A stretch of DNA of 64,000 bases from Escherichia coli (lineage in GTDB: Bacteria > Pseudomonadota > Gammaproteobacteria > Enterobacterales > Enterobacteriaceae), in assembly GCF_044324785.1 (NCBI RefSeq), contig NZ_CP172127.1; one strand, 5' to 3'. The position numbers and the translations under genes were made by a program. Every line of letters begins with the position of its first letter. Position 1 is the stretch's first letter. Of the stretch, positions 33,993 to 61,951 are shown in pieces. The notes below the pieces were generated by a model that saw nothing but the letters and a program-made list of their open reading frames with translations, did not search any database and was not told the origin of the DNA.

Positions 33993-33994
33993 AT

Positions 33995-36454: not shown

Positions 36455-36472
36455 TTATGCATATCTTTACGA

Positions 36473-38314
<1,842 letters not shown>

Positions 38315-40364: not shown

Positions 40365-40619
<255 letters not shown>

Positions 40620-40817: not shown

Positions 40818-41831
40818 ATGCGTGTACTGGGTATTGAAACTTCCTGCGATGAAACCGGCATCGCCATTTACGACGATGAAAAAGGTTTGTTAGCCAACCA
40901 ATTGTATAGTCAGGTGAAATTGCACGCTGACTACGGCGGCGTAGTGCCTGAGCTGGCCTCCCGCGATCATGTGCGTAAAACCGTACCGTTGATCCAGGCG
41001 GCGCTAAAGGAGTCTGGTTTAACGGCAAAAGACATTGATGCTGTGGCCTATACCGCAGGCCCTGGATTAGTCGGCGCACTGCTGGTTGGCGCGACCGTGG
41101 GGCGTTCTCTGGCGTTTGCCTGGAACGTTCCGGCGATCCCTGTACACCATATGGAAGGGCATCTGTTAGCGCCGATGCTGGAAGATAACCCACCGGAATT
41201 TCCGTTTGTGGCGCTGCTGGTTTCCGGCGGTCATACGCAGTTAATCAGCGTGACTGGCATTGGTCAGTACGAGCTGCTCGGCGAGTCTATCGATGATGCG
41301 GCTGGTGAAGCGTTTGATAAAACCGCGAAGCTGCTGGGGCTGGATTATCCTGGCGGGCCATTACTGTCGAAAATGGCGGCTCAGGGTACAGCCGGGCGCT
41401 TTGTCTTCCCGCGCCCGATGACCGACCGTCCGGGGCTGGATTTCAGCTTCTCCGGCCTGAAAACCTTCGCGGCAAATACCATTCGTGACAACGGCACCGA
41501 CGACCAGACGCGTGCTGATATCGCCCGCGCCTTTGAAGATGCGGTGGTCGATACGCTGATGATTAAGTGCAAGCGGGCGCTGGATCAGACGGGCTTTAAG
41601 CGACTGGTCATGGCGGGCGGCGTGAGTGCTAACCGTACGTTACGGGCGAAGCTGGCTGAAATGATGAAAAAACGCCGCGGCGAAGTGTTCTACGCGCGTC
41701 CGGAATTTTGTACTGATAACGGCGCGATGATCGCCTATGCCGGAATGGTGCGGTTTAAAGCAGGCGCGACGGCGGATCTCGGCGTTAGCGTGCGTCCGCG
41801 CTGGCCGCTGGCGGAGTTACCGGCTGCGTAA
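40818..41831 (+). CDS. tsaD: tRNA N6-threonylcarbamoyladenosine synthase TsaD (YgjD/Gcp)
   Basis: 337-aa [35 protein letters not shown]; divergent from rpsU. Confidence 0.95.
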
Positions 41832-41873
41832 AACTATCGAGTGCCGGAGAGTTACTTCCGGCACCGTCCTTAC

Positions 41874-43337
41874 TTAAAGCAACACCACGGGCATCCACAG
41901 TAAGCCGGTAATCACCAGCAATACGAGGAATATCAGCCCAAAAATCGCCCCCAGTCGCCAGTAATCCGCCGTTGGCAGATAACCACTGCCGTAGTAAATC
42001 GGACTGGGGCCGGTGGCGTATGGTGTAAGAATGCTCCCCAGACCAATTGCCGCACCAACCATCAGGCAGAACACCGGCAGCGGGATTTCCGGCATCGCCA
42101 GCGCAGCGGCAATCATCATCGGTGCGAGGGCGGAGGTATACGCCGTGGCGCTGGCAAAGAAGTAGCGCAGCAGATAAAAGACCACAATCAACGCCACCAT
42201 CACCATCGTCGGCGAATAACCGCTTAAGCTGCCTGCTAACAGTTTGCCAAACCAGCTAATAAAACCGGTGTTGTTGAGTCCGGTAGCGAGGGTGATAAGC
42301 GAGGCCAGCCAGAAGAAAACGTTCCACGCGGCTTTATTACTGACAATGTCGTCCCAACTGATAATGCGCAGAAGCAGCATCAGCGCCACCACGCTGTAAC
42401 CGACCATCGCGGCATCGATATAATCACCGCCGAAAATCCACAGCACCAGCGCGCCTACCATCAGCCCAAGCATCCGTTTTTCACGAGAACAGAGCGGGCC
42501 CATTGCCTGCAGTTCCGTCTCTGCCCAGCGCGGCACCTGATCACCAGACTTCAGTACCGGCGGGTACAGCACGTAAGCCAGCCAGGGAACCAGCAGAACC
42601 AGTAAAATACTGAGCGGCAACATCCCGAGGAACCAGTCGCCCCAACTCAGTGTGGCGTGAGATGCGCTTTTCATCAGGCCAATTAACAGCAAGTTAGGTG
42701 CCATCGCCGTCAGGAAAATGGCGCTGGTCACGCAGTCGGCAACAATCCCCATCCACATGATGTACGAGCCAATGCTGCGTGAACTGCTGTCGTTTGGTTG
42801 TGATTGATAGAGCGGTGGCAGGTTACGGATGATGGGATAGATAATCCCCGCACCGCGCGCCGAGTTGGACGGTGTTACAGGTGCCAGGATCAGCTCGGAG
42901 AACATCACCGCATAGCCGAGAAACAGCGTACGATGCCCCATCTTTTTCACCAGAATCAGCGCGATACGTCGCCCCAGCCCGGTTTTTTCATAGCCTGTGC
43001 CAAACATAAAGGCGGCGAAAATCAGCCAGATAACCGAATTAGAAAAACCAGAAACCGCCCAGGAGAGGGATTTGGCGGTGAACTTAAAACCTGGCTGGGC
43101 GAGCTGCTCCGGGCTAAACAGCAGCCACGGCGAGAGAATGGCGATAATGGAGATACCCACCATCGCCACCACGGCACCCGGCACGGGTTCGAGGATCAGT
43201 CCAACGATCACGCCAGTAAAAACGGCAAAGTAGAGCCAGGTATGACTCTCCAGCCCTGCGGGAACCGGAATTAGAGCAATAATGGCGATGACCGCCAGCG
43301 GCGCAAGGTATCGCCACCATTCAGTGGAAGGTTTCAT
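41874..43337 (-). CDS. ttdT: L-tartrate/succinate antiporter TtdT
   Basis: 487-aa polytopic membrane ORF downstream of ttdAB. Confidence 0.9.
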   Translation of the reverse strand: MKPSTEWWRYLAPLAVIAIIALIPVPAGLESHTWLYFAVFTGVIVGLILEPVPGAVVAMVGISIIAILSPWLLFSPEQLAQPGFKFTAKSLSWAVSGFSNSVIWLIFAAFMFGTGYEKTGLGRRIALILVKKMGHRTLFLGYAVMFSELILAPVTPSNSARGAGIIYPIIRNLPPLYQSQPNDSSSRSIGSYIMWMGIVADCVTSAIFLTAMAPNLLLIGLMKSASHATLSWGDWFLGMLPLSILLVLLVPWLAYVLYPPVLKSGDQVPRWAETELQAMGPLCSREKRMLGLMVGALVLWIFGGDYIDAAMVGYSVVALMLLLRIISWDDIVSNKAAWNVFFWLASLITLATGLNNTGFISWFGKLLAGSLSGYSPTMVMVALIVVFYLLRYFFASATAYTSALAPMMIAAALAMPEIPLPVFCLMVGAAIGLGSILTPYATGPSPIYYGSGYLPTADYWRLGAIFGLIFLVLLVITGLLWMPVVLL

Positions 43338-43385
43338 CGTGTTATGCCTGCGAAAAAGGAGAGGGGGTGAGCCTCTCCGGGAGGG

Positions 43386-43991
43386 TTATTTGATGTAGTG
43401 GACGTGCTCGCAAATCTCTTCCACGATGGGATCGCGGCGTTCGGCGAACAGCTTTTTGTTTTCGGCTATCAGGTTGTTGCCGTGGGTATCAATAGAGACA
43501 ATCAGCGGACCGAACTCTTTGACCCGGCAGACCCACAGCGACTCCGGCATCCCGAGTTCTGTCCAGTGCACTTCTTCAATCTCTTCCACCTGGGTTGCCG
43601 CCAGTACTGCGCAGCCTGCCGGGAAAATCACATGCAGCGCCTTGAATTTCTGGCAGCCTTCTTCGGTCAGCGGCCCCATTCCGCCTTTGCCGACCACCAG
43701 TTTCACGCCGGTCTGTTCGATAAATTCACGTTCAAAACTTTCCATACGCATACTGGTTGTCGGGCCGACGGATACCATCTCCCATTTGTCGCCGTTTTTG
43801 CGCACGATGGGGCCAGCGTGGAAAATCGCTTTGCCGTTGAGATCGTAAGGGATCGGACGTTTCAGTTCGATCAAGCGGCGGTGACAAACGTCGCGGCAGG
43901 TTACCAGCGTACCGGTCAGGTAGATCACATCGCCGACGCGAATATCTTGCAGATCTTCAGCTTTGATCGGGGTTGTCAGGATCTTTTTCAT
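43386..43991 (-). CDS. ttdB: L(+)-tartrate dehydratase beta subunit TtdB
   Basis: 201-aa ORF; fumarate hydratase class I C-terminal-like; overlaps ttdA stop. Confidence 0.9.
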
Positions 43992-44899
43992 AACGCGCTC
44001 CGGGTGTGAGACAGATTTTCAAAGGTGAGATCGGCATGAACCAGCAGTGTGCCGCGACGATGCGCCCAGCAGCCTGTAGAAACAGCAACGCCGATGGTTG
44101 ACGGATGGCGGGCGGCAGATTCGATATGTACGCCCATCACTGAACTGTTGCCAGTCAGCCCTTGTGGACCAATCCCCAGACGGTTGAGTCCTTCTTCCAG
44201 GCGTACTTCCAGCTCTGCCGCTTTTGGATTTGGATGGCGGCTGCCAATCGGGCGCAAAATGGCTTTACGCGAGAGCACTGCGGCGGTTTCCACCGAGGTG
44301 GCGATGCCCACGCCTACCAGTACCGGTGGACAGGCGTTTACGGCGAGGGTGGAGATATTTTCGAAGACGAATTTCACCACGCCTTCGTATCCTTCCGACG
44401 GCATTAACACTTTCGAACGACCAGGTAGTGTGCAGCCGCCGCCTGCCATGTAAACTTCGATTTCCGCATCGTCACCGTCGGGGATGATATCCCAAGTGAC
44501 CCACGGTACGCCGCTGCCGGTATTTTTGCCGGTGTTCACTTCGTCAAAAATTTCTACCGCATTGTGACGCAGTGGCGCTTTGACGGTTGCCTCTTCCACG
44601 GCTTGCTTAAGAATGCTTTGCAGCTCGCCAAGCAGTGGGAAACGGGAACCGACCTTAACAAAAAACATGATTTCGCCGGTGTCCTGGCAGGCCGGGCGAT
44701 TCAGGTCGATTGCTTTTTGCATGTTGTCGAACATCGTGTGGTAGATGATTTTCCCCATCGACGACGTTTCGGCATCCTTTAGCTGTTTTAGTTTGTCCAC
44801 CACGTCATCGGGCATTCGGGTAGAAATCATGGCGGTAAAGTTAGCGACAATCTCCGTCAACTTATTCACTGCCTGTTGCTTATTACTTTCGCTCATCAT
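43988..44899 (-). CDS. ttdA: L(+)-tartrate dehydratase alpha subunit TtdA
   Basis: 303-aa ORF; Fe-S hydro-lyase alpha-type. Confidence 0.9.
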
Positions 44900-45105
44900 G
44901 GCAACTCCAGTTTATGTATTTGTCTGGAAAAATTCACCGCCACAAACTACCACTAAAAATGTGGTTTTATATTTTTTGCCGCCGTGAATATGTAATTCAC
45001 AGTTCGTGAATCAACGCGAAAATAAGAATGAATATTGCGCCAGAGCAGGGAATGGCAATGTTTTGCGAAATACACTGCGCTTATCACAACTGCGGATAAT
45101 TAACG

Positions 45106-46038
45106 ATGCTGAATAGCTGGCCTTTAGCCAAAGATTTGCAGGTACTGGTAGAAATCGTCCACAGCGGGAGTTTTAGCGCCGCAGCGGCGACGCTTGGGCA
45201 AACGCCTGCATTTGTCACCAAGCGGATCCAAATCCTTGAAAATACGCTGGCAACAACGCTGCTGAACCGCTCCGCTCGCGGCGTGGCGCTGACTGAAAGT
45301 GGCCAACGTTGTTACGAGCATGCGCTGGAAATCCTCACCCAATATCAGCGACTGGTCGATGACGTTACGCAAATCAAAACGCGCCCGGAGGGGATGATTC
45401 GTATTGGCTGTAGTTTTGGTTTTGGGCGCAGCCATATTGCGCCAGCTATTACCGAACTGATGCGCAATTATCCTGAGTTACAAGTGCATTTTGAATTGTT
45501 CGATCGGCAAATTGATTTAGTGCAGGATAATATTGATCTGGATATTCGTATTAATGACGAAATTCCTGATTATTATATTGCGCATCTTTTGACAAAAAAT
45601 AAACGAATATTATGTGCTGCACCTGAGTATCTGCAAAAATATCCGCAGCCACAATCCTTGCAGGAATTAAGTCGTCATGACTGTCTGGTGACCAAAGAGC
45701 GTGATATGACCCACGGAATATGGGAGTTGGGGAACGGTCAGGAGAAAAAATCGGTGAAGGTAAGCGGGCACCTTTCCTCCAATAGTGGTGAGATTGTGCT
45801 GCAATGGGCGCTGGAAGGAAAAGGAATTATGCTGCGTTCTGAGTGGGATGTTTTGCCGTTTCTGGAGAGTGGCAAACTGGTGCGAGTATTGCCGGAGTAT
45901 GCACAAAGCGCCAATATCTGGGCTGTTTACCGGGAGCCGCTCTATCGCAGCATGAAATTACGTGTCTGCGTGGAATTTCTGGCGGCATGGTGCCAGCAAC
46001 GGCTGGGCAAGCCCGACGAAGGCTATCAGGTTATGTAG
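45106..46038 (+). CDS. ttdR: LysR-family activator of ttdAB, TtdR
   Basis: 310-aa ORF with N-terminal LysR HTH; divergent from ttdA. Confidence 0.88.
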
Positions 46039-46050
46039 ACTCGCGAAAAA

Positions 46051-46668
46051 TCACTCAGGATCCTTTTCGCGCTTTCTTTTGAATTTCGTCCAGATTTTTG
46101 TCTCTTGACGACGCCACAGACGCTGGATGTTGTCATGATGGCGCAGCAGGATCAGGCATGAGAGCATCGAAACCGGGAAGGTGAATTGTGGTTTAAACCA
46201 CCAGACGTAAAACGGAGCAATCAGTGCACTTACAATCGCTCCCAGCGACGAGTATCCGCTCAATAGCACGGTCAGTAACCAGGTTCCCGCCATTACTCCG
46301 GTGAGATCCCAGCCAATTGGTGCGATGGCACCAAAAGCGGTAGCAACGCCTTTTCCTCCTTTAAAACCGAAGAAAACGGGCCAGATGTGTCCAAGGCAGG
46401 CGGCGATGGCAATTAAGCCTAGCCAGAAGGGGCTGACACCTAATTCATACGCGCCCCAGACGGGCAACATTCCTTTCAGAACGTCGAAAATCAGTACTGC
46501 TACGGCTGCTCCCTTGCCACCGATACGTAACACATTGGTTGCGCCTGGATTGCCGGAGCCGCTGGTTCGCGGATCGGGCAGCCCACACAAGCGGCAAACC
46601 AGAATGGCACTGGAAATGGAGCCGCAGAGGTACGCGATGAGGATCATTCCAGGCGCGATTGCACTCAT
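46051..46668 (-). CDS. plsY: Glycerol-3-phosphate acyltransferase PlsY
   Basis: 205-aa membrane [48 protein letters not shown]. Confidence 0.92.
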
Positions 46669-46772
46669 AAGCTGTTCCGTTTTGAAAATTCGTGTTCAAC
46701 GATGAATCTGTGGATAATACGCACATTTCGCCGGAAGTGGTATCCGGTTAGCCAAAAAGCAGGCAGGACGTG

Positions 46773-47141
46773 ATGGATATTGTATTTATAGAGCAACTTT
46801 CGGTAATCACCACTATTGGTGTTTACGACTGGGAACAGACCATCGAACAGAAGTTAGTGTTCGATATCGAAATGGCGTGGGATAACCGTAAAGCGGCGAA
46901 AAGTGATGATGTGGCGGATTGCCTCAGTTACGCTGACATTGCAGAAACGGTGGTCAGCCATGTTGAGGGAGCGCGTTTTGCGTTGGTGGAGCGCGTGGCG
47001 GAAGAGGTGGCAGAATTACTGCTAACACGCTTTAACTCACCGTGGGTACGTATCAAACTCAGTAAGCCAGGCGCGGTGGCACGTGCCACGAATGTCGGCG
47101 TCATTATTGAGCGTGGCAATAATCCTAAAGAAAATAATTAA
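46773..47141 (+). CDS. folB: Dihydroneopterin aldolase FolB
   Basis: ORF 46770..47141, start at ATG 46773 (MDIVFIEQLSVITTIGVYDWEQTIEQK). Confidence 0.92.
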   Translation: MDIVFIEQLSVITTIGVYDWEQTIEQKLVFDIEMAWDNRKAAKSDDVADCLSYADIAETVVSHVEGARFALVERVAEEVAELLLTRFNSPWVRIKLSKPGAVARATNVGVIIERGNNPKENN

Positions 47142-47231
47142 TTTTACAGTTATAAAACCAAACGGCTATAACCGAGTCTTATTGCAGTATTTTTGACGAG
47201 CAATACATTTTTATTATTTAGGGGTTTATTG

Positions 47232-48053
47232 ATGAGCGATATGCACTCGCTGCTGGTAGCGGCAATATTGGGTGTGGTCGAAGGATTGACAGAATTTCTG
47301 CCGGTATCCAGCACAGGCCACATGATTATTGTCGGTCATTTGTTGGGATTTGAGGGAGATACGGCGAAAACCTTTGAAGTGGTGATCCAGTTAGGATCGA
47401 TTCTGGCTGTGGTTGTCATGTTCTGGCGACGTCTGTTTGGGCTGATCGGTATTCACTTTGGTCGCCCGTTGCAGCACGAAGGAGAAAGCAAAGGCCGTTT
47501 AACGCTGATCCACATTCTGCTTGGCATGATCCCGGCGGTGGTGCTGGGGTTGTTATTCCATGATGCTATCAAGTCCTTGTTTAATCCGATAAATGTGATG
47601 TATGCGCTGGTCGTTGGCGGTTTGTTGCTGATTGCCGCCGAATGCCTGAAACCAAAAGAACCGCGTGCGCCGGGTCTCGATGATATGACCTATCGTCAGG
47701 CGTTTATGATTGGTTGCTTCCAGTGTCTGGCGCTGTGGCCGGGTTTCTCTCGCTCCGGGGCGACCATTTCAGGTGGGATGCTGATGGGCGTGAGCCGTTA
47801 CGCTGCTTCCGAGTTCTCGTTCCTGCTGGCGGTGCCGATGATGATGGGTGCAACGGCGCTCGATCTCTACAAAAGCTGGGGCTTCCTGACAACCGGCGAT
47901 ATCCCGATGTTTGCCGTTGGGTTTATCACCGCTTTTGTGGTGGCGCTGATAGCGATTAAAACCTTCCTGCAATTGATTAAGCGCATTTCGTTTATCCCTT
48001 TCGCCATTTATCGCTTTATTGTGGCGGCTGCGGTGTATGTCGTGTTCTTTTGA
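47232..48053 (+). CDS. uppP: Undecaprenyl-diphosphatase UppP (BacA)
   Basis: ORF 47193..48053, start trimmed to [30 protein letters not shown] (273 aa). Confidence 0.92.
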
Positions 48054-48133
48054 TTGAGGAATAGTGTCGGATATGACGCTTGTGCGTCTTATCCGACCTG
48101 GCCGGTGTCTGCAATATATTGAAATTCAAGTGC

Positions 48134-49372
48134 TTAATCAGGCTTTGGGCAACGTTGTTCCTTCCAGTTGGCTACCGCCGCAATCCGCCGTCGGGTCAGC
48201 TCCTCGCGAATCTCCACACCTTTAAATCCCGCTTCAACGACCGCTTTTGTCGGCACTGACTGCGCCACTTCCCAGGCTTCGCGCAACCAGCGGCCTTGCG
48301 GGTAGTCCGCTGATTCAAAACCGGTTCTGCCGCGCACGTCAGCCTCGCTGGTCAGCGCCAGTTGCTCGACACGCTGCGGTTTACGCCAGGCGTCAATGGA
48401 ATCAAATAATTTGACGATGGTTTTTGGGTTCAGCATTGGGAAGGTGTGGATGAGATCGTGAAACTCAGCCACCAGTCGGGCTAAATCGCGAATTTCATTT
48501 GGCACGCGCAGACGCTGGCATAGTTGTTCCACTAACTTCACACCCGCCGGGCCATGACCATGATGACGCGGCCAAAGTTCTGGCGGCGTCAGTCCTTTAC
48601 CGAGATCGTGGCATAGCGTTGCGAAACGGACATCGACCTGCGGACTCAGCATCGCCGCCATTGAGAGCGTCATTAAGGTGTGAATACCGGTGTCGATTTC
48701 CGGATGCCACCTGGCAGGGGCCGGAACGCCAAACAGGGCGTCAATTTCCGGGAATAAAACGCGCAGTGCGCCGCAATCACGCAGTACCTGGAAGAACACC
48801 TGGGGATTGCGGGTAGTGAGGGCGCTTTCCGTCTCTTTCCACACCCGTTCAGGCGTCAGGTGTTCCAGTTCACCCGCGTGGATCATCTCGCGCATCAGCG
48901 CCAGAGTTTCATCGGCAATACGAAAACCGAGGTGGGCATAACGCGCAGCAAAACGCGCCACGCGCAGTACGCGTAACGGATCTTCGCCAAAAGCGGGGGA
49001 AACATGGCGCAACAGACGATTTTGCAGATCGCCCAGACCGTTGTACGGGTCGATAATCTCGCCGTTATCGTCCTGGGCCAGCGCATTAATGGTCAGATCG
49101 CGCCGCTTAAGATCATCTTCCAGCGTGACATCCGGTGCGGCATAGCAGGTAAAACCGGTGTAACCGGAACCGGATTTCCGTTCGGTTCGTGCCAGCGCAT
49201 ACTCTTCATGGGTTTGCGGATGCAGAAAAACAGGAAAATCGCGGCCTACCTGCTGGTAGCCCGCGTCGAGCATCTCCTGTGGCGTACTGCCGACTACTAC
49301 CCAATCTCTGTCTTTGACCGGTAGCCCTAACAATGCATCCCGAACAGCACCACCGACCAGATAAATCTTCAC
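48134..49372 (-). CDS. cca: CCA-adding tRNA nucleotidyltransferase Cca (HD domain)
   Basis: 412-aa [31 protein letters not shown]. Confidence 0.95.
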
Positions 49373-49435
49373 GCCATCATCCCTTCGTCAAATACACAAT
49401 TCCTAATAATAAGACAGTGCAACGAAGAAGGCGAT

Positions 49436-50056
49436 TTAGTTCATCCAGCGATCTTTACGTTTACGCGTTGGGATCAGGTGCGGCAGTACCAGGCCGAGCA
49501 GCAAGCCAAGCCCCAGCACGCCACCGCCATACATAAACCACTGCATGATGATGGTGCGCTGTTTGTCATCCAGCTGTACGCTGGCGGCATCGACCTTTTT
49601 CTGCGCGACAATCAGCTCGTTTTTCAGTTTCTGATTTTCTTCTTTTAACCCGTTGATCACGCTGTCGCTCTGCGCCACTTTTTGCTGCATTTCTGCGGTG
49701 CGCTGATTCCAGGTGTTATCGATATTGGTGAGCTTATCGGTCAGGGTTTTGACCTGATTTTCCAGATCTGGCACACGGGAGCGCAGGCTTGGCTCTGTGC
49801 TAAGTTGTTTCAACGGGATCCAGGCGGTACGGCCAGAGCTGTCTTTCACCTGGGCATAATTGGTGTTGGCGTCAGTTTGTAATAAGGTCACTTCCTCGCC
49901 GGCGTTAACCGTGCCCACGAGGCGATAATGGTCTCCCGGACCGCTACGGACCCAGGTGTTCAGTTCGTCAGAAACATAGCGCGTTTCTTCAGCGTGTGAG
50001 ACGGCAGTCGCGCTAAGTGCGAGTAAAGTTAATCCGATCAGGCGTAATTTTGGCAT
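49436..50056 (-). CDS. ygiM: SH3-domain membrane protein YgiM
   Basis: 206-aa ORF with signal peptide, central coiled region, C-terminal TM. Confidence 0.9.
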   Translation of the reverse strand: MPKLRLIGLTLLALSATAVSHAEETRYVSDELNTWVRSGPGDHYRLVGTVNAGEEVTLLQTDANTNYAQVKDSSGRTAWIPLKQLSTEPSLRSRVPDLENQVKTLTDKLTNIDNTWNQRTAEMQQKVAQSDSVINGLKEENQKLKNELIVAQKKVDAASVQLDDKQRTIIMQWFMYGGGVLGLGLLLGLVLPHLIPTRKRKDRWMN

Positions 50057-51621: not shown

Positions 51622-54462
51622 ATGAAGCCGCTCTCTTCACCATTACAGCAGTACTGGCAGACCGTTGTTGAGCGGCTGCCAGAGCCTTTAGCCGAGGAAT
51701 CACTTAGCATACAGGCGAAGTCAGTACTTACTTTCAGTGATTTTGTGCAGGACAGCGTGATTGCGCATCCAGAGTGGCTGACGGAACTGGAAAGCCAACC
51801 GCCGCAGGCCGACGAATGGCAGCATTACGCTGCCTGGTTGCAGGAGGCGCTCAGTAATGTGAGTGACGAAGCCGGGTTAATGCGCGAGCTGCGGCTATTC
51901 CGGCGGCGCATTATGGTGCGCATCGCCTGGGCGCAAACGCTGGCACTGGTTACTGAAGAGAGCATTTTGCAGCAGCTCAGTCATCTGGCGGAGACGCTGA
52001 TTGTTGCGGCGCGTGACTGGCTGTATGACGCCTGCTGCCGCGAGTGGGGAACGCCGTGCAATGCGCAGGGCGAAGCGCAACCGCTGCTGATTTTAGGCAT
52101 GGGTAAGCTGGGTGGCGGGGAATTGAATTTCTCCTCAGATATCGATCTGATTTTTGCCTGGCCGGAACATGGTTGTACCCAGGGCGGACGCCGGGAACTG
52201 GATAACGCCCAGTTTTTTACCCGCATGGGGCAGCGGCTGATTAAAGTGCTGGATCAACCAACGCAGGATGGCTTCGTCTATCGCGTGGATATGCGACTGC
52301 GTCCGTTTGGCGAAAGTGGCCCGCTGGTGCTGAGCTTTGCGGCGCTGGAAGATTATTACCAGGAGCAGGGGCGCGACTGGGAGCGTTACGCGATGGTCAA
52401 GGCGCGGATTATGGGCGATAGCGAAGGCGTCTATGCTAACGAGTTGCGTGCGATGCTGCGCCCGTTTGTTTTCCGTCGTTACATCGATTTCAGCGTGATT
52501 CAGTCGCTGCGCAACATGAAAGGAATGATTGCCCGTGAAGTGCGTCGACGCGGTTTGACCGACAACATCAAACTTGGCGCAGGCGGCATTCGCGAAATTG
52601 AATTTATCGTCCAGGTGTTCCAGCTCATTCGCGGCGGGCGTGAACCGTCGCTGCAATCGCGCTCTTTACTGCCAACGCTCAGCGCCATTTCCGCGCTGCA
52701 TCTGCTTTCTGAAAACGATGCTGAACTATTGCGAGTGGCGTATCTGTTCCTGCGGCGTCTGGAAAACCTGCTGCAAAGCATTAACGACGAACAAACCCAG
52801 ACGCTTCCTTCTGATGAGCTTAACCGTGCGCGGCTGGCGTGGGCGATGGACTTTGCTGACTGGCCGCAACTGACCGGGGCGCTGACCGTACATATGACCA
52901 ATGTGCGTCGGGTGTTTAATGAATTGATTGGCGACGATGAAAGTGAAACTCAGGAAGAGTCGCTGTCGGAACAGTGGCGTGAGCTGTGGCAGGATGCGTT
53001 GCAGGAAGATGACACCACGCCAGTGCTTGCGCATCTTAGCGAGGATGATCGCAAACAGGTGCTAACGCTGATTGCTGATTTTCGCAAAGAGCTGGATAAG
53101 CGTACCATCGGGCCGCGCGGGCGTCAGGTGCTCGACCATCTGATGCCGCATCTGCTAAGTGATGTCTGTGCGCGTGAAGACGCTGCTGTCACGCTGTCGC
53201 GCATTACCGCCTTGCTGGTGGGAATTGTTACCCGCACTACCTATTTAGAATTGCTCAGTGAATTCCCCGCGGCGCTTAAGCATTTGATTTCTCTGTGTGC
53301 CGCATCGCCGATGATTGCCAGCCAGCTAGCGCGTTATCCATTATTGCTGGACGAACTGCTCGATCCAAACACTCTCTACCAACCGACGGCGACGGATGCC
53401 TACCGTGATGAACTGCGCCAGTATTTGCTGCGCGTGCCGGAAGATGACGAAGAACAACAGCTTGAGGCGCTGCGTCAGTTCAAACAGGCGCAACTGTTAC
53501 GTATTGCGGCAGCGGATATCGCCGGTACGCTACCGGTAATGAAAGTGAGCGATCACTTAACCTGGCTGGCGGAGGCTATGATAGATGCCGTCGTTCAGCA
53601 GGCGTGGGTTCAAATGGTTGCCCGCTACGGTAAGCCAAATCACCTGAACGAACGCGAAGGGCGTGGTTTTGCGGTGGTCGGCTACGGCAAGCTGGGCGGC
53701 TGGGAGTTAGGCTACAGTTCCGATCTTGACCTGATCTTCCTCCATGATTGCCCGATGGATGCGATGACTGACGGCGAGCGGGAAATCGACGGGCGACAGT
53801 TTTATCTGCGTCTGGCGCAACGCATTATGCATCTGTTCAGTACGCGAACCTCTTCCGGCATTTTGTATGAAGTGGATGCACGGTTGCGTCCGTCCGGGGC
53901 GGCGGGAATGCTGGTGACATCCGCAGAAGCGTTTGCCGATTATCAGAAAAACGAGGCCTGGACGTGGGAACATCAGGCGCTGGTGCGTGCGCGTGTAGTG
54001 TACGGCGATCCGCAGCTCACCGCGCACTTTGACGCAGTACGCCGGGAGATTATGACGCTGCCGCGCGAAGGCAAAACCCTGCAAACAGAAGTGCGGGAAA
54101 TGCGCGAGAAAATGCGTGCCCATCTCGGCAATAAACATCGCGATCGCTTTGATATCAAAGCCGATGAAGGCGGAATTACCGATATCGAATTTATTACTCA
54201 ATATCTGGTGTTGCGCTACGCTCATGAAAAACCGAAGTTAACGCGCTGGTCAGACAACGTGCGCATTCTGGAACTACTGGCGCAAAACGACATTATGGAA
54301 GAGCAGGAAGCGATGGCGCTGACCCGTGCTTACACGACGCTGCGCGATGAACTTCATCATCTGGCATTACAGGAATTGCCGGGCCATGTGTCGGAGGATT
54401 GCTTCACCGCAGAGCGTGAACTGGTGCGGGCAAGCTGGCAGAAGTGGCTGGTGGAAGAATGA
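51622..54462 (+). CDS. glnE: Glutamine synthetase adenylyltransferase/deadenylase GlnE
   Basis: ORF 51418..54462, start trimmed to ATG 51622 ([19 protein letters not shown], 946 aa); two nucleotidyltransferase domains. Confidence 0.95.
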
Positions 54463-54509
54463 AGTATGGTATTATCGCGCGCAAATTTTGAATCTCTCAG
54501 GAGACAGGA

Positions 54510-55943
54510 ATGAAAGTAACGCTGCCAGAGTTTGAACGTGCAGGAGTGATGGTGGTTGGTGATGTGATGCTGGATCGTTACTGGTACGGTCCCACCAGCC
54601 GTATCTCGCCGGAAGCGCCGGTGCCCGTGGTTAAAGTAAATACCATCGAAGAACGTCCGGGCGGCGCGGCTAACGTGGCGATGAATATCGCTTCTCTCGG
54701 TGCTAATGCACGCCTGGTCGGGTTGACGGGCATTGACGATGCGGCGCGCGCGCTGAGTAAATCTCTGGCCGACGTCAACGTCAAATGCGACTTCGTTTCT
54801 GTACCGACGCATCCGACCATCACCAAATTACGGGTACTTTCCCGCAACCAACAGCTGATCCGTCTGGATTTTGAAGAAGGTTTCGAAGGGGTTGATCCGC
54901 AGCCGCTGCACGAGCGGATTAATCAGGCGCTGAGTTCGATTGGCGCGCTGGTGCTCTCTGACTACGCGAAAGGTGCGCTGGCAAGCGTGCAGCAGATGAT
55001 CCAACTGGCGCGTAAAGCGGGCGTTCCGGTGCTGATTGATCCAAAAGGTACCGATTTTGAGCGCTACCGCGGCGCTACGCTGTTAACGCCGAATCTCTCG
55101 GAATTTGAAGCTGTTGTCGGTAAATGTAAGACCGAAGAAGAGATTGTTGAACGCGGCATGAAACTGATTGCCGATTACGAACTCTCGGCTCTGTTGGTGA
55201 CCCGTTCCGAACAGGGTATGTCGCTGCTGCAACCGGGTAAAGCGCCGCTGCATATGCCAACCCAGGCGCAGGAAGTGTATGACGTTACCGGTGCGGGCGA
55301 CACGGTGATTGGCGTCCTGGCGGCAACGCTGGCTGCGGGTAATTCACTGGAAGAAGCCTGCTTCTTTGCCAATGCGGCGGCAGGCGTGGTGGTCGGCAAA
55401 CTGGGGACATCCACGGTATCGCCGATCGAGCTGGAAAATGCAGTACGTGGACGTGCAGATACCGGCTTTGGTGTGATGACCGAAGAGGAACTGAAGCTTG
55501 CTGTAGCGGCGGCGCGTAAACGTGGTGAAAAAGTGGTAATGACCAACGGTGTCTTCGATATCCTACATGCCGGGCACGTCTCTTATCTGGCAAATGCCCG
55601 CAAGCTGGGTGACCGCTTGATTGTTGCCGTCAACAGCGATGCCTCCACCAAACGGCTGAAAGGGGATTCCCGCCCCGTTAACCCGCTCGAACAGCGTATG
55701 ATTGTGCTGGGCGCACTGGAAGCGGTCGACTGGGTAGTGTCGTTTGAAGAAGACACGCCGCAGCGCTTGATCGCCGGGATCCTGCCAGACCTGCTGGTGA
55801 AAGGTGGCGACTATAAACCAGAAGAGATTGCCGGGAGTAAAGAAGTCTGGGCCAACGGCGGCGAAGTGTTGGTGCTCAACTTTGAAGACGGTTGCTCGAC
55901 GACCAACATCATCAAGAAGATCCAACAGGATAAAAAAGGCTAA
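54510..55943 (+). CDS. hldE: Bifunctional D-beta-D-heptose 7-phosphate kinase / heptose 1-phosphate adenylyltransferase HldE
   Basis: 477-aa [44 protein letters not shown]. Confidence 0.95.
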
Positions 55944-56022
55944 CCGGAAAGCGGTTCACAGATCTCGCTTCGAACCTGGCAGGCCTATTGACGCTGTTGT
56001 TTTTTCAACCTAGAGTAAAGGA

Positions 56023-56166
56023 ACAAGGGTAAGGGAGGATTTCTCCCCCCTCTGAATTGGTTGTTAATAAGCCTGGAAACTTACTAGTAACAACACAATC
56101 AGTATGATGACGAGCTTCATCATAACCCTTTCCTTCTATAAGGCCCCTTCCTCGGGAGGGGCTTTC
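56023..56166 (+). ncRNA. Sib-family antisense sRNA (SibD/SibE-like), copy 1
   Basis: Near-consensus promoter TTGACG-17 nt-TAGAGT at 55988-56016; transcript would fully cover the ibs ORF on the opposite strand; GC hairpin + U-run at about 56142-56165; ends approximate. Confidence 0.55.
56064..56123 (-). CDS. Ibs-family hydrophobic toxin peptide (19 aa, MMKLVIILIVLLLVSFQAY), copy 1
   Basis: Minus-strand ATGATGAAGCTCGTCATCATACTGATTGTGTTGTTACTAGTAAGTTTCCAGGCTTATTAA; typical Ibs length and composition. Confidence 0.7.
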   Translation of the reverse strand: MMKLVIILIVLLLVSFQAY

Positions 56167-56398
56167 CCGTTTCAGCTCCTTGCTGACTCCCCGATTGTTG
56201 ATGAGCGCCAGACCCCGCGCAACGCTTTCCCAGAGGCAGTTTTCCTTTCCCCGAGCGGTCACGCAAAACGTTGCAACAGCCTGATCATTTGCACCTTTTA
56301 GCGGAACGCAGATATAAAAAATCCCCGGTTTTTTGGGCCAGGGATATGTGTTAATGAAACCTTCTTGACGCTGTTTTTTTTTCAACCTAAAGTAAAGG

Positions 56399-56542
56399 AA
56401 CAAGGGTGAGGGAGGATTTCTCCCCCCTCTGATTGGCTGTTAGTAAGCGTGGAAACTTATCAGTAACAACACAATCAGTATGATGATGAGCTTCATCATA
56501 ACCCTTTCCTTATACAAGGCCCCTTCTTCGGGAGGGGCTTTC
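56399..56542 (+). ncRNA. Sib-family antisense sRNA, copy 2
   Basis: Promoter TTGACG-17 nt-TAAAGT; hairpin + U-run at about 56518-56541; antisense to second ibs ORF; ends approximate. Confidence 0.55.
56440..56499 (-). CDS. Ibs-family hydrophobic toxin peptide (19 aa, MMKLIIILIVLLLISFHAY), copy 2
   Basis: Minus-strand ATGATGAAGCTCATCATCATACTGATTGTGTTGTTACTGATAAGTTTCCACGCTTACTAA. Confidence 0.7.
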   Translation of the reverse strand: MMKLIIILIVLLLISFHAY

Positions 56543-56737
56543 CCGTTTCAGCCCCTTGCTGACTTCCCGATTGTTGATGAACGCCGGACCCCGCGCAATG
56601 CTTTCCCAGAGGCAGTTTTGCCTTCCCCGAGCGGTCACGCAAAATGCTGCAACAGCCCGATCATTTGCACTTTTTATCGGAACGCAGATATAAAGAATCC
56701 CCGGCTTTTTGGGCCAGGGATGTTCATAGTTGAAAAT

Positions 56738-58257
56738 TTATTCTACGTTTTCTGCGACGGGAGTTGTTGAGGTTAAGGGGGAAGTCAATGCCGCCAGCGA
56801 GCCGCCTGAAACGCCAATTTCATTGAGTAAGGAGTCAATCAGCGGTGCTTGTGTGCGGTAAGAGAGTGCGGCTGATAACGCTTGTTCCGCCAGGTTTCCG
56901 CCCCCCACATTACCCGTGTTTGCATCACCCGCAGCGCTGCCACGATTCAGACCATCGACCTGAATAATCTTGATACCGTCAATAGATTTCATCGGCTCAA
57001 CGGATTTTTCTATTACCGCAGGTAGCGCCTGCAACAAGGCCAGTTTGAATTTAAGGCTGGTTTGTTCATCAGAAAGTACGTTGATAGCATCGTTCAGCGC
57101 ACGTTGTGCTTCTGCTTCCGCCAGACCCTTTTTACGTGTAGCTTCGGCTAACTCAACGATAGCCGCCGCCTGCATCTCTGCGGCTTCTTTTTCTGCTTTT
57201 GCCCGGACAGTCAGTTCAACTGCTTTGGTTTCTGCATCCTGCGCGGCAGCGATTAGGGCAACTTGTTTAGCACGATCGGCTTCTGCGGTCTGGCGAGTGG
57301 TTTCTACGTTTTGTTGGGCGCTTACTGCTTCTGCGAGTGCAAGGTTAGCACGCGCTTCTGCCTGGGACTGTTGTTCCGATTTGGCGGCAATAGCGATCGA
57401 TTTCGTCTGGTTGGCGATTTCGGTGACCTGCTGCTGTTCGATCTCTTTAATGCGAACTTCACGTTCAGCTTCAACTTTTCTGGAACGGACGGCCTGTTCG
57501 CGGTCGATTTCCGTTTCCTGAATCTGTCGTTCAGCCAGAATTCGCGTCTGCTCTGCTTCCCGACGACGCTCGGCCTCAAAAGCTGCAATTTTCGCATTCT
57601 GCTCAGCGGTACGGGTTTTAACCTGCTGCTCCTGTTCAAGCGTCATAAACGCTTCTTGTTGTTCAATCTCCAGCTTCCGCGAAAGCGCATCACGATTTTT
57701 CTCACGCACCGCAACTTCTACATCCTGTTCAACTTCGTTACGTTCGCGACGACGGCGCTCCGTCTCCTGCGTCAGCTTGGTTAAACCTTCGGCGTCAAAG
57801 GCGTTGTTAGGATTGAAATGTTCTTTCGACGTCTGGTTAAAGTTGGTAAGTGAAACGCTTTCCAGTTCCAGACCGTTTTTCGACAGATCTTCAGCTACGG
57901 TATTTTGTACTCCCTGCACGAAGTTCTCGCGGGTATCCTGTAACTCATGCATGGTCATTTGTGCAGCTGTTGCACGGAGGGCATCGACGAATTTATCTTC
58001 AACCAACATACGTAAATCTTCTGGTGATAGCGTGCGTTGCCCCAACGTTTGGGCAGCGGTGGCAATCCCTTCTACTGAAGGTTTTACCCGCACAAAGAAA
58101 GCGACTACTACATCGACGCGCATACGATCTTTCGTAATCAGGCTATCAATGGTTGAGCGGCTGACTTCCAGCTTCAGAGTATTCATATTGATGGGGATTA
58201 TTTCATGAAAGATCGGCATCACGATTGCGCCACCGCTCATTACCACTTTTTGCCCAC
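56738..58257 (-). pseudogene. yqiK: yqiK (flotillin/SPFH-family protein), C-terminal 503 codons, separated from its 5' end by an IS insertion
   Basis: ORF 56738..58246 begins VVMSGGAIVMPIFHEIIPINMNTLKLEV, continuing the reading frame that starts at 59465 on the far side of the IS. Confidence 0.85.
58249..58257. repeat. Target-site duplication, left copy (TTTGCCCAC)
   Basis: Identical 9-mer at 59315-59323 directly flanks the other inverted repeat. Confidence 0.8.
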
Positions 58258-59314
58258 GGCTTTGTTGAATAAATCAGATTTCGGGTAAGTCTCCCCCGTA
58301 GCGGGTTGTGTTTTCAGGCAATACGCACGCTTTCAGGCATACCTGCTTTCGTCATTTTGTTCAGCGCTCGTACCAGGGCCATAGCCTCCGCAACCTGACC
58401 ATCGTAGTCACGCAGCGTCAGTGAACCCCCGAACAGCTGTTTTACCCGGTACATCGCCGTTTCCGCTATCGAGCGACGGTTGTAATCTGTTGTCCATTTC
58501 CACCGCGCATTACTCCCGGTCATTCGCTGATTAGCCACTGCACGGTTACGGTCTGCATATTCACCGGGCCAGTAACCCGCACCTTTTCGGGGAGGGATAA
58601 GCGCGCTGATTTTCTTACGCCGCAGTTCATCGTGACATAGCCGGGTATCGTAAGCGCCATCGGCGGCGGCTGACCTGATTTTCCGGTGGGTTTGCCGGAT
58701 TAACCCGGGGAAGGCCTCTGAGTCCGTAACGTTGTTCAGCGACAGGTCAGCGCAGATGATTTCATGTGTTTTACTGTCAACGGCGAGATGCAGCTTACGC
58801 CAGATACGGCGGCGTTCCTGGCCATGCTTTTTGACTTTCCACTCGCCTTCACCGAAGACCTTCAGCCCGGTGGAATCAATTACCAGGTGTGCGATTTCAC
58901 CCCGGGTGGGCGTTTTGAAACTGACATTAACCGACTTTGCCCGCCTGCTGACACAGCTGTAATCCGGGCAGCGTAGCGGAACGTTCATCAGAGAAAAAAT
59001 GGAATCAATAAAGCCCTGCGCAGCCCGCAGGGTCAGCCTGAATACGCGTTTAATGACCAGCACAGTAGTGATGGCAAGGTCAGAATAGCGCTGAGGTCTG
59101 CCTCGTGAAGAAGGTGTTGCTGACTCATACCAGGCCTGAATAGCTTCATCATCCAGCCAGAAAGTTATGGAGCCACGGTTGATGAGGGCTTTATTGTAGG
59201 TGGGCCAGTTGGTGATTTTGAACTTTTGCTTTGCCACGGAACGGTCTGCGTTGTCGGGAAGATACGTGATCTGATCCTTCAACTCAGCAAAAGTTCGATT
59301 TATTCAACAAAGCC
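58258..59314 (-). mobile_element. IS903-family insertion sequence (IS5 family, IS903 group), 1057 bp
   Basis: Perfect 18-bp terminal inverted repeats GGCTTTGTTGAATAAATC (58258-58275; complement at 59297-59314); length and ends match recalled IS903/IS102; flanked by 9-bp direct repeat. Confidence 0.9.
58314..59237 (-). CDS. IS903-family DDE transposase (307 aa from GTG; ORF track extends it to 322 aa from TTG at 59282)
   Basis: Protein ...KFKITNWPTYNKALINRGSITFWLDD...DGAYD...; fills the element between the inverted repeats. Confidence 0.85.
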   Translation of the reverse strand: MAKQKFKITNWPTYNKALINRGSITFWLDDEAIQAWYESATPSSRGRPQRYSDLAITTVLVIKRVFRLTLRAAQGFIDSIFSLMNVPLRCPDYSCVSRRAKSVNVSFKTPTRGEIAHLVIDSTGLKVFGEGEWKVKKHGQERRRIWRKLHLAVDSKTHEIICADLSLNNVTDSEAFPGLIRQTHRKIRSAAADGAYDTRLCHDELRRKKISALIPPRKGAGYWPGEYADRNRAVANQRMTGSNARWKWTTDYNRRSIAETAMYRVKQLFGGSLTLRDYDGQVAEAMALVRALNKMTKAGMPESVRIA

Positions 59315-59323
59315 TTTGCCCAC
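59315..59323. repeat. Target-site duplication, right copy (TTTGCCCAC)
   Basis: Matches 58249-58257. Confidence 0.8.
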
Positions 59324-59465
59324 CTAAACCAGTACGAACAAAAGCTTGCTCTGCCGAAGCGCGACGATAGAGCCTGGCGAAAATAATTCCAATAATAAAC
59401 AGAATGCATACGGCAATAATCGCGGTAAACATCCAGGAGGGCACAGAATTAACAATATCATCCAT
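59315..59465 (-). pseudogene. yqiK: yqiK 5' fragment (first 50 codons, including the N-terminal membrane anchor)
   Basis: Minus strand from ATG 59465: MDDIVNSVPSWMFTAIIAVCILFIIGIIFARLYRRASAEQAFVRTGLGGQ, then runs into the IS inverted repeat. Confidence 0.85.
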
Positions 59466-59491
59466 TATTAAATTTCCTTTTGATTAATAAA

Positions 59492-60121
59492 TTACAATAT
59501 TTGGGGCCAGGGATTGTTTTCCGCCAAATATCGCGTTGCAGAAAGTCGGCAAATAATTAACACTTTGTCTCCTTTAGTGAAAATTTTTCCTTCTTCAGGC
59601 TCCAGTAGTAAATAATGTATTTGGCCAAATTGATCGGTGAGTTTTCCTTCGCAGGGATTACCTGAAGTGGCCTGATGACCGGTAATTAACGCCATGCTAC
59701 CAATATATTCTTCTTCTGTAATAGCTGAACTATGGTCGCGTGGAATCCAGGGCGCAACTATTTTACCGGTATAATGCACCGCAATAATCGTAAACAGTAA
59801 ACTGACAGGAACCACGAACAGGTTCGAAAGTGGTGATTGCCAGACCATGATGCAGGCATGCTGCAACAGGATGCCAATAAGACCAAAAAAACCAGCCAGT
59901 AAGCAGAGAACGACGAGAGCTGGCAATCTTCCGATATTGAGATAATGAAGTGCCTGGCTAATATGACCTGTGGTTATGGAATCATAATGGTCAAGATGTG
60001 CATCAAGAGCACCGGAGAGCATGTGACCGCAGATAAGCGCAAAAATTTCTAAAAGGCCGATCAACAGTACAAAGGAAATAGCGAAAAGATAAGGGGTATT
60101 ATAGTCGGCGAATAAAATCAT
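59492..60121 (-). CDS. yqiJ: NfeD-like inner membrane protein YqiJ
   Basis: 209-aa [40 protein letters not shown]; immediately upstream of yqiK. Confidence 0.9.
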
Positions 60122-60389
60122 ATGTCACTCCAATGTCCATTTAGTGACGCAATATTTACTTTGGGATAGTTTCCTTGCTTACATTTATCTTTGTTAATAA
60201 TAACACATGTTAGAGAAGTTCTGGAAGAGAAAGTCTTTTAATATGGTTTTTTATTTTTCACTAAAAAGTGTGATCGGGGACAATATATTTACGCACGTTA
60301 TGTTTAAAGGCACTACACTGATTGGGGAATACTGAAATCAGAAAAAGCATATGGCCTTAAAAGGTATGCGATAACCGGAGGATGTGCTT

Positions 60390-60590
60390 ATGGATCATAG
60401 TCTTAATTCTTTAAATAATTTCGATTTCCTGGCGCGTAGTTTTGCCAGAATGCACGCAGAAGGTCGCCCGGTCGATATTCTGGCCGTTACTGGTAACATG
60501 GATGAAGAACATAGAACCTGGTTTTGCGCACGTTATGCCTGGTATTGCCAACAGATGATGCAAACCAGAGAACTTGAATTAGAACACTGA
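60390..60590 (+). CDS. glgS: GlgS (surface composition regulator)
   Basis: ORF 60384..60590 (GTG), start trimmed to ATG 60390: [59 protein letters not shown] aaccggagga upstream. Confidence 0.88.
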
Positions 60591-60624: not shown

Positions 60625-60924
60625 TTATTCTGCTTTATCAATAGGCGGGATAGCCGGAGGAGATTGAAGATCTGCTACCGAATTATTGCGCGCTTCCAGT
60701 TCACTGATGCGCTGCTCTAGTAATGCCAGTTTCTCACGAGTCCGTAACAGGACTTGCGTCTGTACGTCGAATTCTTCGCGGCTCACCAGATCGAGACGCG
60801 TCAGCTGCGCTTGTAGGGTTTGGCGGATTTTTTTCTCCACATCTTCCCCGAACTCCCTGATTCCTTTAGGCATTGATTCGTGAACCTGGCGAGCGATTTG
60901 CTCAATTTTTTTCGGGTCAATCAT
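60625..60924 (-). CDS. ubiK: Ubiquinone biosynthesis accessory factor UbiK (YqiC)
   Basis: ORF 60625..60984, start trimmed to [35 protein letters not shown]; coiled-coil. Confidence 0.8.
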
Positions 60925-61039
60925 TGTAGTTTCCCTGTACTGATAGGTGTTGAGTGCCATTGTAGTGCGATAAGGGTAAGTCATAAACCAGAATTATGTG
61001 AAGCTATGCGTTGCTGCCGCTAATCATTAGCGTTATAGT

Positions 61040-61215
61040 GAATCCGCTTATTCTCAGGGCGGGGCGAAATTCCCCACCGGCGGTAAATCAACTCAGTTGA
61101 AAGCCCGCGAGCGCTTTGGGTGCGAACTCAAAGGACAGCAGATCCGGTGTAATTCCGGGGCCGACGGTTAGAGTCCGGATGGGAGAGAGTAACGATTCTG
61201 TCGGGCATGGACCCG
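61040..61215 (+). promoter_or_regulatory. FMN riboswitch (RFN element) in the ribB leader
   Basis: Conserved RFN blocks agggcggggcgaaattccccaccggcggtaa ... agcccgcgagcg ... ggtgtaattccgg ... gccgacggttagagtccggatgggagaga upstream of ribB. Confidence 0.75.
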
Positions 61216-61297: not shown

Positions 61298-61951
61298 ATG
61301 AATCAGACGCTACTTTCCTCTTTTGGTACGCCTTTCGAACGTGTTGAAAATGCACTGGCTGCGCTGCGTGAAGGACGCGGTGTAATGGTGCTTGATGATG
61401 AAGACCGTGAAAACGAAGGCGATATGATCTTCCCGGCAGAAACCATGACCGTTGAGCAGATGGCGCTGACCATTCGCCACGGTAGCGGTATTGTTTGCCT
61501 GTGCATTACTGAAGATCGCCGTAAACAACTCGATCTGCCAATGATGGTAGAAAATAACACCAGCGCCTATGGCACCGGTTTTACCGTGACCATTGAAGCG
61601 GCTGAAGGTGTGACTACCGGTGTTTCTGCCGCTGACCGTATTACGACCGTTCGCGCAGCGATTGCCGATGGCGCAAAACCGTCAGATCTGAATCGCCCAG
61701 GCCACGTTTTCCCACTTCGCGCTCAGGCTGGTGGTGTACTGACGCGTGGCGGCCATACTGAAGCGACTATTGATCTGATGACGCTGGCAGGCTTTAAACC
61801 GGCTGGTGTGCTGTGTGAGCTGACTAATGACGATGGCACGATGGCGCGTGCACCAGAGTGCATTGAGTTTGCCAATAAACACAATATGGCGCTCGTGACT
61901 ATTGAAGACCTGGTGGCATACCGTCAGGCACATGAGCGTAAAGCCAGCTGA
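61298..61951 (+). CDS. ribB: 3,4-dihydroxy-2-butanone 4-phosphate synthase RibB
   Basis: 217-aa [53 protein letters not shown]. Confidence 0.96.

Follow-up and report, generated by a model that had tools for sequence, protein, structure and literature searches.

The window analysed here is a stretch of 64,000 nucleotides from Escherichia coli (contig NZ_CP172127.1 of assembly GCF_044324785.1), and the element in question is the spacer between hldE and yqiK. [quoted passage not shown] The identification rests on the flanking genes and their order, which are those of the known locus, on the nearly universal match of the spacer among E. coli genomes, and on the two encoded peptides, which are identical to peptides annotated in E. 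coli N3. An original prediction, read from the DNA letters, had proposed tandem Sib/Ibs modules between hldE and yqiK, and it is borne out by two Rfam matches to Sib, by 19-residue open reading frames (ORFs) antisense to them and by collinear flanks. As the prediction also held, the system is not new: its kind, locus and mechanism are those already known, and the exact peptides are already present in RefSeq.

The Rfam scan that had been proposed as a check was run over the whole window at the gathering threshold (56 bits for SIB_RNA). It gave two full-length matches to SIB_RNA (RF00113, model positions 1-147 of 147) on the plus strand, 55988-56138 at 141.8 bits and 56365-56514 at 150.2 bits, so the lack of a covariance-model match that would have spoken against the prediction is not what was seen. 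These coordinates are not those of the transcripts, because the model begins at the -35 hexamer and ends before the terminator; the transcript ends were mapped by alignment to the annotated K-12 sibE and sibD RNAs. The elements of the two modules are the following.

55988-56016, plus strand: sib-1 promoter, -35 TTGACG (55988-55993), 17-nt spacer, -10 TAGAGT (56011-56016)
56023-56167, plus strand: Sib-1 RNA, 145 nt, +1 = A, RNA in the position of K-12 sibE, ends by homology
56140-56166, plus strand: Sib-1 terminator hairpin, 11 bp, G+C-rich, -19.3 kcal/mol for a 45-nt segment
56064-56123, minus strand: ibs-1 ORF, 19 codons and a stop, MMKLVIILIVLLLVSFQAY
complement of 56127-56133, minus strand: ibs-1 Shine-Dalgarno site GGAAAGG, read in the sequence
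56365-56393, plus strand: sib-2 promoter, -35 TTGACG, 17-nt spacer, -10 TAAAGT
56400-56543, plus strand: Sib-2 RNA, 144 nt, +1 = A, RNA in the position of K-12 sibD, ends by homology
56440-56499, minus strand: ibs-2 ORF, 19 codons and a stop, MMKLIIILIVLLLISFHAY
complement of 56503-56509, minus strand: ibs-2 Shine-Dalgarno site GGAAAGG, read in the sequence

Both of the predicted sigma-70 promoters are thus found, and in both modules the start base lies 7 nt after the -10 hexamer. A promoter scan returned three promoter-like sites in the region, compared with 0.7 expected from shuffles. The sib-1 promoter is identical to that of K-12 sibE across the 35 bp that precede +1, and the sib-2 promoter differs from the 35-bp minimal promoter of K-12 sibD by one base of the spacer. 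Each module therefore has what a Sib RNA calls for: a sigma-70 promoter of its own, and a predicted transcript near 140 nt in length that runs to a terminator hairpin, the ends being placed by homology and the U-run being weak. The antisense RNA had been expected to measure about 145 nt and to overlap ibs fully; indeed, each ibs ORF and its Shine-Dalgarno site lie wholly within the antisense Sib transcript.

The two minus-strand ORFs encode exactly the peptides that had been quoted. Four differences between the ORFs had been counted: the three substitutions V5I, V14I and Q17H stand, but there are five nucleotide differences, G13A (V5I), A39G (silent, L13), G40A (V14I), G51C (Q17H) and T57C (silent, Y19), hence two silent changes and not one. 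Ibs-1 and Ibs-2 both fit the family pattern MMK/R...(I/V)S(F/L)xxY, with its 18-19 residues and highly hydrophobic composition, like the 69 distinct family peptides that were collected. RefSeq gives the identical peptides of E. coli N3 the name "type I toxin-antitoxin system Ibs family toxin". The statement that automated ORF calling misses these genes no longer holds, since RefSeq annotates both Ibs coding sequences in essentially all E. coli genomes, including N3. The feature table of N3, the one record other than K-12 that was read, lists no sib RNA. A full-text literature search for four peptide strings returned no papers.

The predicted direct repeats of about 376 bp are also present. The repeat finder reports two families of direct repeats, 55988-56055/56365-56432 (68 nt, 96%) and 56056-56355/56432-56731 (300 nt, 90%), which add up to one tandem duplication, and the spacing is 377 or 376 bp because of a 1-nt indel between the units. 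When the two units are aligned, they differ at 27 of about 359 shared columns (about 92% identity). The tandem Sib unit is the sole repeat of at least 100 nt within the window.

The flanking genes were assigned by collinearity with the annotated genomes of E. coli N3 and K-12.

54510-55943, plus strand: hldE
stop at 56738, minus strand: yqiK

Against K-12 the stretch is collinear at 95.6% over 4.5 kb, and against N3 at 98.3% over 5.3 kb, and the order hldE-unit 1-unit 2-yqiK is the same in both; the K-12 annotation at this site reads hldE-sibE/ibsE-sibD/ibsD-yqiK. Of 5,426 complete E. coli genomes, a single one lacks a match to the hldE-yqiK spacer, and RefSeq annotates Ibs coding sequences under the matches. 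Only 42 of 5,428 matching records are at least 95% identical to the window spacer, and some E. coli genomes have a single Sib unit at this locus.

Several observations weigh against the identification. First, NCBIfam contains no Ibs hidden Markov model, and when the peptides, with short in-frame upstream extensions that bring them to the 20-residue minimum, were scanned against it, the hits were noise only (E 0.02-0.6). Second, the Sib terminators have no clean U-run and were not called by the consensus terminator scan. A hairpin followed by a U-run had been predicted: the hairpin is there, 11 bp long and strong, but the U-run is broken and weak. Indeed, the hairpin is followed by CCCGUUUC, and the U-run is interrupted because the UUU just upstream of CCCGUUUC is paired within the stem. 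Third, the hexamers of the putative ibs promoters are weak and were not called by the promoter scan.

56185-56222, minus strand: putative ibs-1 promoter, -35 TTGCGC (56222-56217), 17-nt spacer, -10 AACAAT (56199-56194), start about 56185-56188
56561-56598, minus strand: putative ibs-2 promoter, -35 TTGCGC (56598-56593), 17-nt spacer, -10 AACAAT (56575-56570), start about 56561-56564

Han et al. showed that ibsC and ibsD start 18 nt beyond the 3' end of Sib (PMC2943612), and the ibs start implied in the window agrees with that position within 3 nt. When ibs upstream regions are aligned, the position of the hexamers is fixed across genera, and elsewhere they are nearer to the consensus (TTGACC...TATAAC/T in Chimaeribacter, TTGCTT...TGTAAT in Hafnia). 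The fixed position and the near-consensus sequences of these two genera support the assignment of the ibs promoters.

About 80 nt upstream of each putative ibs start lies a TTTGCG box (56262-56268 and 56638-56644; CGCAAAA on the plus strand, TTTTGCG on the ibs strand), which usually opens a short inverted repeat. The box is present in nearly all Enterobacteriaceae Sib/Ibs units and absent in Hafnia and Chimaeribacter. Its distance to the ibs ATG is fixed within each sub-family: 143-145 nt in most D/E-like units, 139 in C-like units, 157-160 in A/B-like units and 135 in a Kluyvera variant. It could be a regulatory site for toxin transcription.

The minus strand also carries two intrinsic terminators.

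56315-56345, minus strand: internal terminator of the yqiK type, between module 2 and the ibs-1 promoter, upstream terminator of module 1 (56345-56321 plus UUUUUUAU), AUCCCUGG...CCGGGGAU then UUUUUUAU
56691-56721, minus strand: yqiK terminator, upstream terminator of module 2 (56721-56697), 9-bp stem, -17.5 kcal/mol for a 49-nt segment, z -4.4

The yqiK terminator is the last element of repeat unit 2, and a second copy stands between the modules because the duplicated unit includes it. The internal copy carries a G-to-A change, which widens the loop to 9 nt and makes the hairpin weaker (-11.6 compared with -17.5 kcal/mol). As a terminator copy precedes each ibs promoter, each toxin gene would be shielded from read-through, the copy at 56691-56721 insulating ibs-2 from yqiK. 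Another hairpin, at the hldE stop (55942-55956, minus strand), was called terminator-like; it is weak (-5.2 kcal/mol, z -0.8) and was not counted.

Sib RNAs are constitutively expressed and repress their cognate ibs mRNA, which leads to degradation of the mRNA (PMC2943612). According to the same study, SibC recognises ibsC by two independent domains, TRD1 (+46 to +68), a loop whose pairing falls inside the ORF, and TRD2 (+99 to +115), a single strand that pairs at the translation-initiation region; from there the pairing extends, and the exchange of both domains moves the specificity from ibsC to ibsD. An excess of IbsC depolarises the membrane within minutes (PMC8309996). In Salmonella, IbsA was described in a preprint as binding the a and b subunits of the F0 sector, inhibiting ATP synthase and lowering ATP (bioRxiv 10.1101/2025.05.26.656083).

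The mechanism proposed for the window locus is that of K-12 SibC/ibsC, and from it we infer transcription, repression, toxicity and specificity here. On the minus strand, each 376-bp unit would give a weakly promoted mRNA of about 160 nt for the 19-residue hydrophobic Ibs peptide; on the plus strand, a strong sigma-70 promoter would give the Sib RNA of about 145 nt, a perfect complement of the whole ibs ORF, the Shine-Dalgarno site and most of the leader. Two exposed regions of Sib would make the first contact with its own ibs mRNA: TRD1, a loop that can pair with the 3' end of the ibs ORF, and TRD2, a single-stranded stretch complementary to the ibs translation-initiation region. The pairing would then spread, translation would be blocked, the duplex would be degraded and no toxin would be made. 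If the level of Sib dropped, Ibs would enter the inner membrane and depolarise it or lower ATP. The TRD1 and TRD2 differences between the copies would keep each Sib specific for its own ibs. By analogy with K-12, the window Sibs probably repress their cognate ibs and the window Ibs alleles are presumably toxic.

The predicted folds (Sib-1, -54.7 kcal/mol, z -4.9; Sib-2, -57.0 kcal/mol, z -4.1) both have the published architecture: P1 as the closing stem (AAGGGU/ACCCUU), a long arm with the TRD1 loop, an AUGAUGA...UCAUCAU hairpin, a single-stranded TRD2 and the 11-bp terminator hairpin. In K-12, SibC, SibD and SibE are capped with nicotinamide adenine dinucleotide (NAD), and the capping depends on +1A and on the 35-bp minimal promoter (PMC12956327). 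Given the conserved +1A and minimal promoters, both window Sibs would be expected to be NAD-capped as well.

SibC/IbsC, the family member that has been dissected by experiment, has the same architecture (P1 stem, TRD1 loop, single-stranded TRD2, terminator, ORF and Shine-Dalgarno site covered; PMC2943612). It differs in that SibC, which is 73-75% identical to the window Sibs, occurs as one copy, located at fau-serA, and the toxin there has FSAY as its last residues. The Ldr/Rdl and Zor/Orz systems likewise combine a small hydrophobic toxin with an antisense RNA antitoxin and are duplicated within one intergenic region (PMC2887945). Their sequences are unrelated to Sib/Ibs, and their antitoxins overlap only a portion of the toxin mRNA; Sib, by contrast, spans the ORF in full as well as the translation-initiation region (PMC2943612).

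Whether each window Sib would discriminate between the two toxins depends on the recognition domains. The two window copies differ at 3 TRD1 and 2 TRD2 positions, compared with 5 and 3 for K-12 SibD and SibE. The longest identical run is uninformative as a measure of specificity, since the conserved flanks dominate it, and duplex energies of the TRDs (in kcal/mol) were used instead.

TRD1: cognate pairs -37 to -42; Sib-1 on ibs-2 -25.2; Sib-2 on ibs-1 -28.2; K-12 non-cognate pairs -6.7 to -27.7
TRD2: cognate pairs about -26 to -32; Sib-1 on ibs-2 -23.8; Sib-2 on ibs-1 -19.6; K-12 non-cognate pairs -13.7 to -22.4

These calculated energies suggest that discrimination between the two window copies is likely. 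Two points count against it: the TRD differences between the copies are few, and two cross-pairs, Sib-2 TRD1 on ibs-1 and Sib-1 TRD2 on ibs-2, lie slightly beyond the K-12 non-cognate range, so strict cognate specificity is not assured. The modules could thus be non-orthogonal, one Sib, most likely Sib-2, also repressing the ibs mRNA of the other copy, which would make the pair partly redundant. We consider this unlikely. It is favoured by the number of TRD mismatches, which is below that of every K-12 non-cognate pair except the TRD1 of C against window copy 2, by the duplex of Sib-2 TRD1 with ibs-1, which exceeds the strongest K-12 non-cognate one (-28.2 compared with -27.7), and by the recognition of K-12 ibsA by non-cognate Sibs (PMC2943612). 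However, altering 3 nt of TRD1 along with TRD2 was enough to abolish repression in K-12 (PMC2943612), the cross-pairs fall short of the cognate duplexes by about 10 kcal/mol in stability, and the differences between the copies are concentrated in the TRDs, as expected if specificity is maintained.

The window locus and the K-12 locus, sibE/ibsE (b4611/b4666) and sibD/ibsD (b4447/b4664), have the same position, orientation and transcript lengths, the K-12 tandem units measuring 375 and 376 bp. The proposed alignment to sibD and sibE confirms the kinship, since each window Sib is 92-93% identical to both K-12 SibD and SibE over the whole RNA. A comparison of the four units, column by column, reveals a mosaic. 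Window copy 1 corresponds to K-12 sibE, and copy 2 to K-12 sibD, as regards promoter, 5' end and unit junction. The TRD2 types are swapped with respect to K-12: copy 1 has a TRD2 like that of SibD (1 mismatch), and copy 2 has that of SibE (0 mismatches). As for TRD1, neither copy matches any K-12 Sib (3-7 mismatches, 4-5 to SibD and SibE). In all, copy 1 has 4 TRD1 and 2 TRD2 mismatches to SibE, copy 2 has 5 and 3 to SibD, and Ibs-1 differs from IbsE by 4 residues and Ibs-2 from IbsD by 3. In TRD1, TRD2 and peptide, neither window copy therefore has the same specificity determinants and toxin as its positional K-12 counterpart. The toxins end in ...VSFQAY (copy 1) and ...ISFHAY (copy 2), compared with ...LSFPTY (IbsE) and ...VSFAAY (IbsD) in K-12; the C-termini differ because TRD1 overlaps codons 13-19. 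The predicted match to SibD/SibE-IbsD/IbsE thus holds for the locus, the order and the promoters, but neither TRD1 nor the toxin C-termini match those of either K-12 module, and TRD2 is exchanged. The window copies are orthologous to K-12 sibE and sibD by position only; they are different alleles at the same two positions.

The frequency of each allele was taken as the number of records with a match of at least 99%, among about 5,400 matching E. coli records.

window Sib-1 allele: 211 records
window Sib-2 allele: 32 records
K-12 sibD allele: 1979 records
K-12 sibE allele: 2057 records

The window alleles are a minority pair in E. coli and are shared with other Escherichia species. In E. coli N3 (NZ_CP031609), the 794-bp spacer is 98.9% identical, with nine substitutions; both Ibs peptides are identical to those of the window, Sib-2 is 100% identical and both coding sequences are annotated, but yqiK is intact, whereas it is interrupted by an insertion sequence (IS) in the window. 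Escherichia sp. E1V33 (L042) has, at a locus of the hldE-yqiK type, a tandem pair with 376-bp spacing, in the window order ...SFQAY then ...SFHAY; its spacer is 92.8% identical to that of the window, and residues 4 and 14 of the peptides are different. The first copy alone was recovered from E. whittamii (L045) and Escherichia sp. MOD1-EC7003 (L056), and it is of the same QAY type. E. albertii has the K-12 types, ...FPTY then ...FAAY.

first position (hldE side): PTY in K-12 and E. albertii; QAY in the window, N3 and E1V33, and in the one copy recovered from each of E. whittamii and MOD1-EC7003
second position (yqiK side): AAY in K-12 and E. albertii; HAY in the window, N3 and E1V33

Both allele classes are found in more than one Escherichia species. 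Each position of the array may hold at least two old allelic classes in which RNA specificity and toxin C-terminus are coupled, a proposal that we regard as tentative and rather doubtful. Introgression from E1V33 was considered as the source of the QAY/HAY haplotype and is not supported, the window spacer being no closer to E1V33 (92.8%) than to K-12 (93.3%).

The family was surveyed by a pattern scan for the Sib core in one genome per GTDB species. The core occurs in 68 loci, in Escherichia, Citrobacter, Salmonella, Kluyvera, Pseudocitrobacter, Phytobacter, Hafnia psychrotolerans and Chimaeribacter. Among 73 distinct members, the most variable columns are the ibs 3' untranslated region, TRD1, the hairpin loop (codons 2-4) and the distal part of TRD2, while the promoter hexamers, the P1 stem and the complement of the Shine-Dalgarno site are invariant or nearly so. 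A consensus fold of 74 sequences, drawn from Escherichia, Citrobacter, Salmonella, Kluyvera and other genera, keeps 18 pairs, 9 of which show compensatory double changes; the central hairpin is invariant by construction, because the aligned sequences were chosen by a fixed core pattern.

In the same survey, Ibs ORFs that lack a stop or are frameshifted, and read through to 37-50 residues, were seen in C. sedlakii (L025), Citrobacter sp. MGH106 (L058) and the Enterobacteriaceae UBA5654 and UBA3516 (L032 and L036). Lying beside an apparently intact Sib core, they are candidate decayed toxin genes.

One or both window copies could likewise be decaying relics that are no longer expressed or toxic, as might be suspected from the disrupted ORFs of C. 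sedlakii, Citrobacter MGH106 and UBA5654, from the single unit that some E. coli genomes have at this locus, and from the adjoining yqiK, already inactivated by the IS. We find this highly improbable. Neither ibs ORF is damaged, and each has its start, Shine-Dalgarno site and stop. The promoters match functional ones of K-12 exactly or almost exactly, the structure-forming stems are intact, and the substitutions between the copies avoid the invariant columns of the family. Moreover, L11 is kept in both peptides, and V5 is kept in Ibs-1 and conservatively replaced by I in Ibs-2; V5 is reported to be important in IbsC (PMC8309996), and L11 in Salmonella IbsA (bioRxiv 10.1101/2025.05.26.656083).

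Longer ORFs overlap the modules, on the plus strand (56104-56301, 65 residues; 56480-56770, 96 residues) and on the minus strand (48 codons each, 56120-56266 and 56496-56642). Both units have these frames open, as does strain N3, and the stop of the 48-codon ORF overlaps the ibs start (ATGA), as is typical of translationally coupled genes. Yet the plus-strand frames, which the original prediction already called spurious, are shortened to 59 and 27 residues in K-12, and diverge in sibA-C to 27-42 residues with unrelated tails. The 48-codon frame does not stay open in K-12, where each unit has a 1-nt indel that breaks it (alignment columns 157 and 200), and it starts with TTG, upstream of the mapped ibs transcription start. 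Both sets were therefore rejected as genes, and we give next to no credence to the idea that any of them is real; they are open in the window because the duplication is recent.

Several other features of the window were recorded. A 1057-bp IS903B element (58258-59314) interrupts yqiK, a flotillin gene that adjoins the Sib array; the element has 18-bp terminal inverted repeats (GGCTTTGTTGAATAAATC), a transposase ORF at 58314-59282 on the minus strand, and a target duplication of 9 bp (TTTGCCCAC) at 58249-58257 and 59315-59323; the remaining yqiK ORF has 502 codons in place of 553. The hldE-sib-yqiK stretch (53763-60000) is 95.6% identical to K-12, and the sequence beyond the IS (5' end of yqiK, yqiJ) 99.1%; this contrast on either side of the IS suggests a recombination mosaic. 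The rpoD-dnaG-aer-ttdT stretch (30000-50000) reaches at most 97.4% identity over 20 kb to any of the 5,426 complete E. coli genomes, and none of the GTDB representatives closely matches the window, which comes from a divergent Escherichia lineage.

A flavin mononucleotide riboswitch (RF00050, 120.9 bits) lies at 61046-61194 on the plus strand, before a 217-codon ORF at the ribB position (61298-61951, plus strand). A tRNA gene at 35087-35162 on the minus strand, with anticodon CAT, was called tRNA-Met by ARAGORN; by synteny with K-12, we take it to be probably ileX. The ORF at the glgS position (60384-60590) directly adjoins that at the ubiK position (60625-60984), as in N3; K-12 presumably has the ygiL-yqiGHI fimbrial cluster between glgS and ubiK, which appears absent in the window.

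The identification of the locus has little significance beyond correct annotation, which gains transcript, promoter and terminator coordinates at a site where the Sib RNAs would otherwise probably be unannotated. The comparison of alleles shows that the names SibD and SibE transfer between strains by position only, and the cognate-pair rules established in K-12 should not be assumed for the window alleles, because the segments that determine specificity are polymorphic. If the positions of the array do hold old allelic classes, alternative Sib/ibs specificities would have been maintained over the long term or exchanged by recombination, and the last residues of the toxin would vary through selection on RNA-RNA recognition at TRD1, and not on the peptide.

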